Source: a bacterium (GTDB lineage: Archaea > Thermoplasmatota > E2 > JACPAO01 > JAHFTW01). From it: 64,000 nt of DNA. The stretch is from the NCBI GenBank assembly GCA_040390065.1, contig JAZJZE010000001.1:326718-390717 (forward strand), given 5' to 3'. Under the pieces are notes generated by a model. It was not told the DNA's origin, made no database searches, and worked only from the letters and a program-made list of their open reading frames with translations. Positions within the stretch are counted from its first letter, which is position 1. Every line of letters begins with the position of its first letter. The position numbers were made by a program, and so were the translations under genes. Of this stretch, positions 17,996 through 54,691 are shown piece after piece.

Positions 17996-18577
17996 CTAGT
18001 ATCCAACAGCCCCGCCGCGGATCCTGGGCCGTGGTCCGACCGTGTCCTCGCGGGGCGGGCCGCGCCATGTTCGCCAATGGAGCGCCACGTCCGTCGGTGT
18101 GAAGGAAAGACTGACTGTCATGACGAGCGGCGTCTCTTGCGTCCGCTCCATCCAAGCGCGAATCCATTTGGCTTCTGCGACGTCCTGTTTCATGTGCATG
18201 AGGGCACGGCCCCGCCAAACCTTCCATTCGATGACGGCCAACGGAAAATGGGTTGGCGTCCAGCTCGTGCCGCCCGACTCCCATGCGGTGCCATACGGTT
18301 CGGGCCAGATGACCAGGTCCTTCGCGATGGCGGCTTTCCGCTTGCCGTTCGTGGCGACGCCGTTGGGGATGCTGACCTCGATTCCGATCTGGCCGACGTC
18401 CTGCAGCGGGCTCCCGGCATGACCAACCTTGGGCAACAGGTGGCGGAAAACGAAGCGATTGACGGCCTCGCGTTCCCGCCCAACCCATCCGTCGCCCGCG
18501 GCATCCGCCACGAATTCCTGGAGTGCCTCTATGATGACAGTCTGCAGGGTGCGGCAGGATTCGGGGTCGCCCGCCAT
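17996..18577 (-). CDS. Putative PD-(D/E)XK superfamily nuclease
   Basis: ATG 18577, 193 aa; 'IGIEV...KDLVIW...LAVIEWK' fits the E..D..ExK catalytic pattern. Confidence 0.55.
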   Translation of the reverse strand: MAGDPESCRTLQTVIIEALQEFVADAAGDGWVGREREAVNRFVFRHLLPKVGHAGSPLQDVGQIGIEVSIPNGVATNGKRKAAIAKDLVIWPEPYGTAWESGGTSWTPTHFPLAVIEWKVWRGRALMHMKQDVAEAKWIRAWMERTQETPLVMTVSLSFTPTDVALHWRTWRGPPREDTVGPRPRIRGGAVGY

Positions 18578-18657
18578 GGGGGAATGCCCGGGCGTGCTGC
18601 CAGCCACGCTCGGCCAAAGGGGAGCTCCACCATGAGGTTGACGCAACCTCGCGAGCC

Positions 18658-19035
18658 CGCAGCGTTCCTCGCCGCTTCGCGGCATCGGCAAACCTGTCCT
18701 GGCACCTACGACGTGCTCGCTTCGCTCGCGGTCTCAGTGCACAGGACAGGATTTGGCGCTGCGGCCGCGCAGGCGCAGCCGCAGCGTTCCTCGCCGCTTC
18801 GCGGCATCGGCAAACCCTGCCCATGCACCTGTCTGTCGCCGGCGGGCGCTCGGCGCCGCCGATGCGACGCGACTTAGTGCACAGGACAGGATTTGGCGCT
18901 GCGGCCGCGCAGGCGCAGCCGCAGCGTTCCTCGCCGCTTCGCGGCATCGGCAAACCCTGCCCATGCACCTGTCTGTCGCCGGCGGGCGCTAGGCGCCGCC
19001 GATGCGACGCGACTTAGTGCACAGGACAGGATTTG
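18658..19035 (-). repeat. tRNA-Leu 3'-end-derived array: two 140-bp units plus one partial unit
   Basis: agtgcacaggacaggatttg at 18736, 18876 and 19016 (the last is the real tRNA); inverted imperfect copies at 18689-18705, 18811-18828 and 18951-18968; the two full units differ at one base. Confidence 0.95.
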
Positions 19036-19099
19036 AACCTGCGAACCACAAAGGAGAAGGCCCTGAACCTTCCGTCGTTGGCCACTTGACTACCTGTGC
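19018..19099 (-). tRNA. tRNA-Leu(CAG)
   Basis: GCACAGG acceptor stem, GAAGG-TTCAGGG-CCTTC anticodon arm, long variable arm, GGTTCAAATCC T arm, A73; CCA not encoded. Confidence 0.95.
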
Positions 19100-19176
19100 A
19101 TTTGGGGAAAAGGGCCAGCCCTTGCGGAGGGCTGCATCCGGCCGACTTCAGGTTGGCACTTGAGGGTTGCGCCCAG

Positions 19177-19294
19177 GCGAACCACAAAGGGGAAGGCCGT
19201 AGCCCTCGGGCCATCAGGTCCGAGGGCGCGACGTGGACGCCGCGAAGCGGCGGCCCGGCCAACCTTCCGTCGTTGGCCACTTGACTACCTGTGC
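19177..19294 (-). pseudogene. Partial tRNA-Leu copy with the anticodon replaced by a 62-nt hairpin insert
   Basis: 19261-19294 is identical to the tRNA 5' part; 19177-19198 matches the 3' anticodon stem and variable arm (21/22); insert at 19199-19260; T loop and 3' acceptor strand absent. Confidence 0.9.
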
Positions 19295-19334
19295 AGACGG
19301 TTGGGAAGAGGGGAGAAGTGGATTCCCTTGAACC

Positions 19335-20129
19335 TTACATCTCGAGTTCGCCGATGGCGTCCGCGAAGCGCTTGAAGCGCTCGCCCAGGAGGTCGAGGGC
19401 CTTCATGAGGGCGTCCTCGGCCTTGAGCGACCCGTCCGTCTCGAAGCGGAAGATGAACTTGCGGTCGTCGTAGGTGATCTTGAGGCCGCCCTGCGTCAGC
19501 TTCTCGGCTTCGTCCGCGCGGTTGATCTCCTCGGGCTGCAGGATGACGAGCTTGCCGCCATCGAGTCCCAGGATCCCCGCAGGCGTGCGGGCGACGGCTT
19601 CCTTGGCCGCCTCGGGCTTGATCTTGCGATTGTCCAACGTCGCCGTCGGGTAGTACTTGTAGCCGACCGCGGAGCAGACTTGCCACTTTGCGTGCTGCGT
19701 GCCGTCGCCGAGGATGGCTTCGGCCTCGAGGATGAGGCGCTGGCCTTCCAGGAGGTCAACGAGCGGGACCTTCGCGTCCACGATGCTGAACTTCTTGTCC
19801 TCGGGCTCGAGGTCGCCGGAGTACACCGTGCACGGGCCCTCCTTGGTGAGGGTGTAGCGCACGAGGTACGTCGGCTTGCCTTCGGCGTCGACTTGGCCCT
19901 TCATGTTGAGCGTGGAGGGGTCGGTCGGCACCGGCAGCAGGCCGATGCGGTGGGCCAGGATCTCGTCGAAGAGCGCGGAGGTGTTGTCGTAGAACGTCAC
20001 CTTGTCGATGGCGAGCTTGGGCACTTCCGACAACAGGACGCGGCGCAGGGCATTGACGAAGTACGGGTGAACGCCGTCGATGACGAGCTTGCACTCGCGG
20101 TCCGTGACGTTGCGAATCTCGATCTTCAT
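19335..20129 (-). CDS. rpoD: DNA-directed RNA polymerase subunit D (Rpo3)
   Basis: 'NALRRVLLSEVPKLAI', 'NTSALFDEILAHRIGLLP', 'HAKW', 'FETDGSL'. Confidence 0.97.
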   Translation of the reverse strand: MKIEIRNVTDRECKLVIDGVHPYFVNALRRVLLSEVPKLAIDKVTFYDNTSALFDEILAHRIGLLPVPTDPSTLNMKGQVDAEGKPTYLVRYTLTKEGPCTVYSGDLEPEDKKFSIVDAKVPLVDLLEGQRLILEAEAILGDGTQHAKWQVCSAVGYKYYPTATLDNRKIKPEAAKEAVARTPAGILGLDGGKLVILQPEEINRADEAEKLTQGGLKITYDDRKFIFRFETDGSLKAEDALMKALDLLGERFKRFADAIGELEM

Positions 20130-20138
20130 GTCAAGCAC

Positions 20139-54191: not shown

Positions 54192-54192
54192 G

Positions 54193-54275
54193 CGCCGAGG
54201 GCAGGATTTGAACCTGCAAATCCAGGGGACACTGGTTTTCGAGACCAGCGCAATACCGGGTTATGCGACCTCGGC
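54193..54275 (-). tRNA. tRNA-Ser(CGA)
   Basis: GCCGAGG acceptor stem, CTGGT-CTCGAAA-ACCAG anticodon arm, variable arm, GCAGG-TTCAAAT-CCTGC T arm, G73. Confidence 0.95.
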
Positions 54276-54691
54276 AGGTAAGTCGGCCGACTTGTGGCCG
54301 CTATTTCCAGGTTTCGTGCCGTGCGAGCGCGACGCGCGAGCCATCAGGGGGTCGCGGGGGGCGGTAAGCCCCCCCGCAGGTCCGCGGGGCCGCAGGCCCC
54401 GCTGCCCAAATGATCGACCTGTTTGCAGGTCGAGGGACACTGGTTTTCGAGACCAGCGCAATACCGGGTTATGCGACCTCGGCAGGTAAGTCGGCCGACT
54501 TGTGGCCGCTATTTCCAGGTTTCGTGCCGTGCGAGCGCGACGCGCGAGCCATCAGGGGGTCGCGGGGGGCGGTAAGCCCCCCCGCAGGTCCGCGGGGCCG
54601 CAGGCCCCGCTGCCCAAATGATCGACCTGTTTGCAGGTCGAGGGACACTGGTTTTCGAGACCAGCGCAATACCGGGTCATGCGACCTCGGC
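54276..54691 (-). repeat. Two 208-bp tandem units, each containing the 5' 50 nt of tRNA-Ser(CGA)
   Basis: tRNA fragment at 54434-54483 (identical) and 54642-54691 (1 mismatch); hairpin-rich 158-bp spacers. Confidence 0.95.

Follow-up and report, generated by a model that had tools for sequence, protein, structure and literature searches.

The E. coli tyrT locus carries 178-bp repeats in tandem downstream of the tRNA gene, each of which begins with the tRNA 3′ end (~19 nt). Integron attC sites and the attP site of the CTX phage are recombination sites that are used as folded single strands, casposons produce a fixed target duplication of 14-15 bp, and the T loop is a usual crossover place of elements that integrate into tRNA genes. 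Partial tRNAs that derive from kilobase-scale integrations are well known from earlier reports (PMC9897764; bioRxiv 10.1101/2020.12.28.424599; PMC3293823), and the report on Caldiarchaeum subterraneum describes tRNA fragments scattered by a mobile element and a 1.8-kb insert encoding a recombinase (PMC3293823). MITEs (miniature inverted-repeat transposable elements) carry, by definition, terminal inverted repeats and target duplications of 2-10 bp (PMC11602168). Here we describe an array of tRNA-derived repeats behind the tRNA-Leu(CAG) gene of a GC-rich archaeal window, i.e. the whole stretch of 64,000 nt that was analysed, which spans positions 326718-390717 of contig C1 in the genome under study, denoted by G000 (draft, 2.68 Mb, 66.7% GC, 89% complete). 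We consider, at a probability of roughly 60%, that the array represents copies, clustered at this locus, of a hairpin-rich DNA element that is non-autonomous, either mobile or duplicative, and that keeps its target gene intact.

Side-by-side sequences and minimum-free-energy (MFE) folds revealed a common unit plan, T-A-T′-B-C followed by the next T, in which T duplicates the final 17-35 nt of the gene upstream, A is a short hairpin that frequently contains a mini-hairpin of the GCGAAGC or GCGCAGC type, T′ is an imperfect inverted copy of T, B is a short hairpin between CCGA and GAGG, and C is a long GC hairpin. Behind tRNAs, T runs from the T loop to the discriminator, and behind protein genes it comprises the final codons with the stop. 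Both sequence and pairing are conserved in B and C; thus, the units at different loci are homologous. The features of the tRNA-Leu locus, in the order in which they are read on the minus strand, are the following:

19335..20138, minus strand: rpoD, encoding the archaeal RNA polymerase subunit D/Rpo3 (Pfam RNA_pol_L 2e-17, RNA_pol_A_bac 4e-13)
19261..19294, minus strand: relic 5′ copy of tRNA-Leu, positions 1-34 (100% repeat of 19066-19099)
19199..19260, minus strand: 62-nt two-hairpin insert that replaces the anticodon of the relic copy
19177..19198, minus strand: relic copy of tRNA positions 38-59, the 3′ side of the anticodon stem and the variable arm (95% repeat of 19041-19062, 22 nt)
19100..19176, minus strand: 77-nt spacer between relic and intact tRNA, with a promoter-like box and a GC hairpin (by eye)
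19017..19099, minus strand: intact tRNA-Leu(CAG) (ARAGORN; Rfam tRNA 48.5 bits)
18896..19016, minus strand: remainder of unit 1, with A hairpin 18971-19016, T′ 18951-18970, B 18929-18950 and C 18898-18925 (MFE fold)
18756..18895, minus strand: unit 2, with T 18877-18895, A, T′ 18811-18830, B and C (99% identical to unit 1)
18622..18755, minus strand: unit 3, diverged and truncated, with T 18737-18755, a different A, T′ 18689-18709, B 18667-18688 and a broken C
17996..18577, minus strand: 193-aa open reading frame (ORF), which probably encodes a PD-(D/E)XK-fold protein

The structured repeat at tRNA-Leu is real and goes beyond chance. Its first T is the last 19 nt of tRNA-Leu(CAG) itself (19017-19035), and these 19 nt were found three times against 0.02 expected by chance, while a 36-nt block, one copy of which lies in unit 3 (18657-18692), was found three times against 0 expected. 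Tandem Repeats Finder (TRF) returned a period of 140 with 2.1 copies and 99% matches over 18736-19035, and a covariance model of the repeat, R1, matched unit 1 (18875-18971) and unit 2 (18735-18830) with 76.3 bits each. The 99% identity of the two 140-nt units indicates a recent duplication. Unit 3 has no closing T, and no distal copy of the tRNA-Leu end that would close an island was found in the window at up to 3 mismatches. A reading of the B junction as a hammerhead or a kink-turn was dropped, since the core nucleotides did not fit (by eye).

The initial annotation of this stretch, made from its letters only, had described an interrupted tRNA copy, an intact tRNA-Leu and about 2.5 repeat units after rpoD, all of which was recovered by ARAGORN, Rfam, TRF and repeat alignments. 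The hairpin that it had placed in both the upstream insert and every downstream unit is a 17-nt arm, in opposite orientation and 94% complementary. It was also right that no integrase accompanies the array (PF00589 has 6 matches in G000, none of them on the window's contig), that rpl13 does not follow the tRNA here (it is on a different contig) and that the second tRNA of the window, a tRNA-Ser(CGA) discussed below, shows a related pattern.

The check that it had proposed, of all tRNA loci for self-derived fragments, found fragments of 18-67 nt within 3 kb of 22 of the 52 ARAGORN tRNAs in G000 (with one tRNA-Tyr pair counted as two), and units were found in relatives as well. All of these fragments lie on the strand of their tRNA, the 3′ fragments downstream and the 5′ fragments upstream, and a copy of the last 15 nt (≤2 mismatches) follows within 700 nt downstream of 17 out of 51 tRNAs. 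Model R1, built from 16 units and applied to G000 with a cut-off of E≤0.01, gave 19 matches. Thirteen of them are behind nine tRNA genes (Leu-CAG, Leu-TAG, Gln-TTG, Gln-CTG, Gly-GCC, Gly-TCC, Arg-CCG, Glu-TTC and Phe), one is behind a displaced tRNA-Lys end, two are partial, one is an orphan, and the remaining two are behind protein genes, namely those for an acyl-CoA dehydrogenase and ribosomal protein S15. At both protein-gene targets there is a duplicate of the final 33 nt of the reading frame that differs at synonymous positions, and the working copy takes its stop codon from the TGA with which the A motif begins. The spacers between T copies (81-188 nt) hold hairpins only, with no integrase fragments inside the units. 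The element is small (~85-140 nt), non-coding and rich in hairpins, and it is spread through G000 and its taxonomic family. For annotation this means that about one-third of the lineage's tRNA genes are flanked by partial copies that confuse tRNA annotation and could pass for split or intron-bearing tRNAs, and that the arrays break assemblies (runs of N, contig ends).

We then compared G000 with 40 relatives (coded G002, G004, G005, G007 etc.), so that searches including G000 covered 41 genomes. R1 matches were present in 12 of the 41, all from one family, f1 (G000 and 11 of its 24 other members), and in none of the 16 genomes outside it; within the genus the copy number ranged from 0 to 19. 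Of 22 inspected matches in relatives, 15 lie directly behind the tRNA whose end they copy, with eight isotypes represented. Units of the same plan and of other sequence were seen by eye behind tRNA-Leu in G013, G017 and G026, which belong to other genera and to one other family, and decayed units stand behind tRNA-Leu in several relatives. The S15 site is polymorphic for presence and absence. It is occupied in G000 (33-nt T) and in G007 (24-nt T, with a different-looking element), probably by independent insertions, and it is empty in 4 out of 6 congeners, including the closest one (93% S15 identity), at which the stop is followed by an unrelated spacer. These empty sites indicate that the units are insertions. 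A degenerate core motif matched more than 119 viral stretches, but none of the 80 viral loci fetched matched R1 (E≤0.1), so that the motif matches are due to chance and viral carriage was rejected. No published description of such units was found in a search of the full-text literature, whose coverage lies outside subscription journals.

The relation between T and T′ was examined in an alignment of 46 matches (44 distinct) from G000 and its relatives to the model. Paired cells made up 85.7%, against 68.0% in shuffles (a value reached by 0 of 500), 26 of the 31 model pairs vary on both sides, and the covariation score was 0.42, against 0.15 in shuffles and at most 0.12 with slid partners. Hairpin C covaries as well, in 6 of its 7 pairs. 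From a plain MAFFT alignment, RNAalifold retrieved hairpin C and the inner stem alone, as bulges shift the register of T′, and the model-based alignment was used instead. In units whose two flanking T copies are not identical, T′ is the better match to the upstream one in 15 cases and to the downstream one in 2, and 8 cases are tied (one locus pair enters the count twice). In G012 the first T′ corresponds to the tRNA end as it is now, and later T′ copies to a variant of T that has a different acceptor sequence. Hence the unit that evolves is T-A-T′-B-C, with the first T inside the gene.

In the mechanism that we propose, the element would move as DNA, with its enzyme supplied in trans. It would enter at the left edge of T, which in tRNAs is in the T loop, and the T copies on both sides of the element would leave one intact copy of the gene. 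The T:T′ stem would be a folded single-strand mimic of the target, or attachment site, and one strand exchange at the left edge of T with the folded T-A-T′ hairpin would give the order gene-T-A-T′-B-C-T. This exchange step is drawn by analogy with known folded sites, and we hold it to be a serious candidate that is more probably wrong than right. Tandem arrays might then arise via repeated insertion or via unequal recombination of one T copy with another. Should it move in this way, the element would rank as a site-specific mobile DNA of very small size, one that spares essential genes by carrying their ends.

Several points weigh against this reading. The covariation was scored on an alignment that had been fitted to the model, and T′ copies T by construction, so that what the score demonstrates is an inverted repeat that is maintained, and not a proven fold. 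T′ is weak at individual loci when compared with GC-rich shuffles: a strict DNA alignment gave p≤0.01 in 4 of 19 spacers, and a duplex-energy test gave p≤0.01 in 5 and p≤0.06 in 9 of the 19. In the Asp, Met and Leu-GAG spacers T′ is undetectable, which implies that more than one kind of unit exists. The two protein genes give opposite signals as to which T copy is the original, since at the acyl-CoA dehydrogenase the downstream T looks native (codons rich in GC at third positions, with its own stop), whereas at S15 the upstream T matches the closest relative. No enzyme could be tied to the element, and no excised or circular form was seen. The sole classical candidate enzymes detected in G000, itself a draft at 89% completeness, are six generic tyrosine recombinases, and none passes the TIGR02249 cut-off for integron integrases, unlike in two members of this archaeal family, G015 (C200:136-1065, L197, 414 bits) and G004 (C7:60098-61011, L198, 282 bits, with the gene split into two matches). 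In the same 89% complete genome no Y1 transposase/RAYT (PF01797), no TnpB, no Cas1 (PF01867) and no reverse transcriptase (PF00078) was found. Finally, nothing in the proposal explains how T′ is rewritten for each new target; the target-specific arms would need to be renewed every time in a templated step, which is without known precedent.

The strand bias of the T:T′ stem can be set on the side of the DNA element or on that of an alternative. Mismatches that are compatible with G·U pairing number 41 on the sense strand and 9 on the antisense strand, an excess of G·U over A·C that extends to all model pairs (110 vs 35) and would equally fit a functional RNA. On this alternative the units would be structured RNAs derived from tRNA 3′ trailers, read through from the tRNA promoter to a T-run after the last T, and T′ would pair with a copy of the tRNA end, serving as a decoy or in the control of 3′ processing or stability. 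Sense folds are indeed more stable (mean -58.1 vs -53.3 kcal/mol for antisense, Wilcoxon p=0.008, n=22), the covariation of hairpin C and the conservation of the core sequence over loci and species point in the same direction, and T-runs were seen by eye after some terminal T copies. On the other hand, the units of two other genera fold better as antisense, and mutational strand bias beside highly transcribed genes could yield the same G·U excess. A functional RNA is also at odds with the patchy presence (the empty S15 sites, 0 to 19 copies within one genus, decayed units) and with the occurrence of the same element behind protein genes. At gathering threshold across the whole window Rfam matched the two tRNAs only, and a permissive scan of 18500-19400 added nothing but sub-threshold chance rows. 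No RNA sequencing run was listed as containing the stretch. We regard the functional-RNA alternative as unlikely.

The mobile DNA element, which we prefer, shares several features with the attachment (att) scars attL and attR of ordinary integrations, i.e. a direct repeat of the 3′ part of the tRNA, usually from the T loop, an intact gene, and the 3′ ends of protein genes as further possible targets. A true example of such an integration is present in G000, where a 12.5-kb element with a tyrosine recombinase (C4:105117-117857) is integrated in tRNA-Lys(CTT), with an exact 17-nt att repeat of the tRNA end at C4:117701. An R1-type unit, with one mismatch in its closing T, comes after that copy of the tRNA end. 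It could be argued that all of the fragments are scars of kilobase virus or plasmid integrations whose cargo was deleted down to ~100 nt and which were then amplified by unequal crossover. Most T copies start in the T loop, the genome has six tyrosine recombinases along with the tRNA-Lys element, and integration-derived tRNA-gene fragments are common in archaea (PMC9897764, PMC3293823). However, remnants of random deletion would not have in common the A motif, the conserved B-C core and a target copy in inverted orientation, as the units do at 2 protein genes, at no fewer than 9 tRNA loci and in 11 other genomes. Moreover, only ~85-140 nt separate the repeats, with no integrase or cargo remains inside, one family of units serves many targets, and the right end of the tRNA-Lys element lacks the B-C core. 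The units are set apart from known integrations by their size, their lack of genes, their conserved hairpin core and their inverted copy of the target, and we consider an origin as integration scars improbable.

Another likeness is that to integron attC and CTX attP. The T:T′ pairing and its covariation, weak at single loci, give an imperfect hairpin that imitates the target duplex, the apical part is variable and sometimes branched, and single-strand exchange would give the observed order of parts. Unlike integron attC, the units showed no GTTRRRY/RYYYAAC core and have neither cassette ORFs nor, in G000, an adjacent integron integrase; and the targets of the units are gene ends, rather than attI or dif. 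It is conceivable that the units represent a hitherto undescribed class, carried by archaea of this family, of miniature, cargo-free integrative elements that bring a replacement and an inverted copy of the invaded gene end, with a folded single-strand att mimic recombined in trans, like an empty integron cassette aimed at the 3′ ends of tRNA and protein genes. We put this forward as a doubtful proposal; if true, natural target-matched hairpin att sites would exist outside integrons and filamentous phages.

Among the other described repeats, those of tyrT resemble the tRNA-Leu array in being tandem units downstream of a tRNA that open with its last ~19 nt. They are confined to one bacterial locus, whereas the units considered here stand at about one-third of the tRNA genes, and at protein genes, across an archaeal family, and have an inverted target copy and a conserved hairpin core. 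Like MITEs and repetitive extragenic palindromes (REP and REPIN), the units are small, non-coding, hairpin-forming, intergenic, multi-copy and lineage-specific, and often lie just after genes. Unlike MITEs, they show a duplication of 17-35 nt, and their inverted repeat is formed by T with an internal T′ and not by the termini. The absence of a Y1 transposase/RAYT from G000, which is 89% complete, separates them from REP/REPIN, the absence of Cas1 and the variable length of the duplications from casposons, and the absence of a reverse transcriptase from a retroelement or a copy of the short interspersed element (SINE) type. The case of C. subterraneum (PMC3293823) resembles our locus in having a 5′ tRNA fragment upstream of an intact, partly rebuilt tRNA, but compared with its 1.8-kb insert the inserts here are of 76-160 nt, non-coding and in tandem.

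The initial annotation had read the array and the 193-aa ORF that follows it as one tRNA-anchored module, a selfish element, integration decoy or defence system. The selfish element is the part of that reading that fares best, while the nuclease drops out of it. In such a module, a PD-(D/E)XK nuclease would work with the array RNA in defence, as a decoy or as a toxin-antitoxin-like pair. In its favour, the ORF starts ~45-60 nt past the last unit on the same strand, its predicted fold is probably nuclease-like, and some homologues lie beside AbiEi, Mrr or another PD-(D/E)XK gene (a methyltransferase is among the other neighbours, which vary). Against it, the ORF was found as a single copy in 1 out of 41 genomes, G000, and in none of the 40 relatives, 11 of which carry units. 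Within G000, the units behind at least 9 other tRNA genes and the 2 protein genes come with no further copy of the ORF. Two distant homologues were found among 5.8 billion proteins, and seven further ones in scattered bacterial genomes, with a tRNA within 3 kb at none of these 7 bacterial loci. Repeats and nuclease gene do not co-occur as in type III toxin-antitoxin-like or other RNA-plus-nuclease modules. The region downstream of rpoD and tRNA-Leu differs at all 13 relative loci checked, none of which has a homologue of the ORF, and the idea of a defence system found no match to a PADLOC defence family, nor was there one in PHROGs. The outcome that the initial annotation had itself set as a refutation, nuclease homologues without any linkage to tRNAs or repeats, is thus the one obtained, and the nuclease module is very improbable. 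The 193-aa ORF is unrelated to the repeat element, and it is a horizontally acquired passenger, a sporadic accessory gene, in the variable region downstream of the tRNA.

The ORF itself is coding-like (GC content at third codon positions, GC3, of 0.77), and the E..D..ExK motif that had been noticed in it is conserved in homologues as E..D..(E/Q)xK. The blocks EREAV, QIGIE, KDLVIW and (E/Q)WK are conserved in 6 homologues, and an alignment of 7 sequences has E35-R36-E37, E67, K86-D87 and W118-K119 invariant, with E or Q at position 117. In the AlphaFold model, of middling confidence (pLDDT 68.7, pTM 0.70), the motif residues map to helix 35-50 and strands 64-71, 83-90 and 114-122, in an arrangement that has the acidic residue, the D of strand 2 and the (D/E/Q)xK of strand 3 of a PD-(D/E)XK catalytic motif. 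The top rows of VIA-align were almost all restriction-endonuclease-like proteins, with Z of 6.0-6.7 and a root-mean-square deviation of 3.3-4.7 over 114-140 residues, at which a Z under 8 is not decisive. The best Foldseek hit was Cas4 SSO0001 (E 3.9e-3), with nothing below E 0.001. The ORF had no match in Pfam, PADLOC or PHROGs, and a profile of its family against PDB sequences returned a single weak unrelated row. Hence a PD-(D/E)XK-like fold, as put forward in the initial annotation, is likely but not proven. The ORF represents a rare family, whose interest lies outside the repeat element.

The weakest reading, in which short-read assembly of a metagenome bin produced or inflated the repeats, is hardly credible: although the Logan contigs of the best matching DNA run stop at every repeat, the repeat pieces reach a depth of only 17-20 where the flanks have 12-14, 18687-18865 is not covered uniquely by any piece and runs of N lie inside arrays at another locus of G000 and in G005, the same architecture recurs at many loci and in 11 other independently assembled genomes, independent contigs join the tRNA end to A-T′-B and C to T-A, and the 35-nt 5′ repeat of the locus has about twice the flank depth. 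Since this independent assembly is broken by the repeats, the number of 140-nt units is not independently fixed by it. The runs of N, which are scaffold gaps inside tRNA-end arrays (C1:249835-250260 in G000), indicate that such repeats break short-read assemblies. A 164-nt contig of run X2 over the start of the ORF (18452-18581) has adapter-like letters at both ends and is probably a library artefact.

On the 5′ side of tRNA-Leu, the S13-S4-S11-rpoD genes precede the locus on the minus strand, and the linkage of rpoD and tRNA-Leu(CAG) is present at 13 relative loci, so that rpoD marks the conserved position of the tRNA-Leu locus. The relic copy, delimited by an exact 35-nt repeat (19261-19295 = 19066-19100), starts 40 nt past the rpoD stop, and the intact tRNA-Leu 235 nt away; the gap between rpoD and tRNA is 27-105 nt in 8 out of 12 same-strand relative loci, which the position of the relic about matches. 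In G005 the relic copy holds a homologous two-hairpin insert with compensatory stem changes, and a 68-nt version of the insert is present in a contig of sequencing run X7. The second hairpin of the insert has a CTGATG loop region, and the anticodon stem of the relic also shows a compensatory pair change in G005. G015 has a 15-nt tRNA-Leu relic. The box in the spacer resembles boxes before other tRNAs and is a candidate promoter.

The second tRNA of the window is preceded by repeats as well:

54192..54275, minus strand: tRNA-Ser(CGA) (ARAGORN, Rfam)
54276..54691, minus strand: two tandem ~208-nt units upstream of tRNA-Ser

Each of these units repeats the promoter region together with the initial 50 nt of the tRNA (54434-54483 and 54642-54691) and includes one copy of a further interspersed repeat, E2, and they were found only in G000 and G002 among nine genomes of the genus with a match. 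An inverted copy of the fragment exceeded shuffles in none of 7 cases of 5′ units. This points to a related outcome that preserves one intact gene, through a different element. The relic tRNA-Leu and the tRNA-Ser units belong to another, related type of event, duplications around other inserted repeats in which an intact promoter and tRNA are kept. A reading of the relic and the units as split or permuted tRNAs, or as tRNAs with a bulge-helix-bulge (BHB) intron, was rejected, as the relic would have no Leu anticodon after simple excision and has no T arm, and all three 5′ copies at tRNA-Ser have the same anticodon (by inspection only).

Several minor observations were made along the way. Between 10030 and 17837 the window has a run of ORFs with no match in Pfam, PADLOC or PHROGs, including one for a 644-aa protein whose C-terminal tail is hydrophobic and one for a 540-aa protein that has an ArsR-type helix-turn-helix. 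No homologue of these ORFs was found beside tRNA-Leu in relatives, in line with a variable region. At C11:126084-126105, an exact 22-nt copy of the tRNA-Val(GAC) 3′ end is separated from its tRNA by 92 kb and from a tyrosine recombinase gene (C11:123914-124396) by ~1.7 kb; it may be the far end of an island or the result of a rearrangement. The downstream regions of tRNA-Val(CAC) and tRNA-Pro(TGG) have in common a trailer unit of ~87 nt with a GGCGC-GAAG-CGCC hairpin (C1:287900-288140 and C5:100900-101140), which is in tandem after tRNA-Val. Upstream of tRNA-Ser(TGA), C31:1-473 holds at least 3 tandem 120-nt units, with the contig starting inside the array; they are composed of tRNA positions 1-26, a 53-nt insert with a 4-nt flanking repeat, positions 23-39 and the promoter region.

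E2 is an interspersed repeat family in its own right, with a short opening hairpin followed by hairpins of G-runs and C-runs. At least 10 other copies are present in G000 (C1:22026, C5:70547, C2:89937, C6:75636, C6:10129, C1:180374, C1:105536, C21:24927, C17:93431, C17:91078 and C9:136628), and relatives have copies too. Long flanking direct repeats, of 39, 67 and 77 nt, were seen at 3 of the 11 copies inspected.

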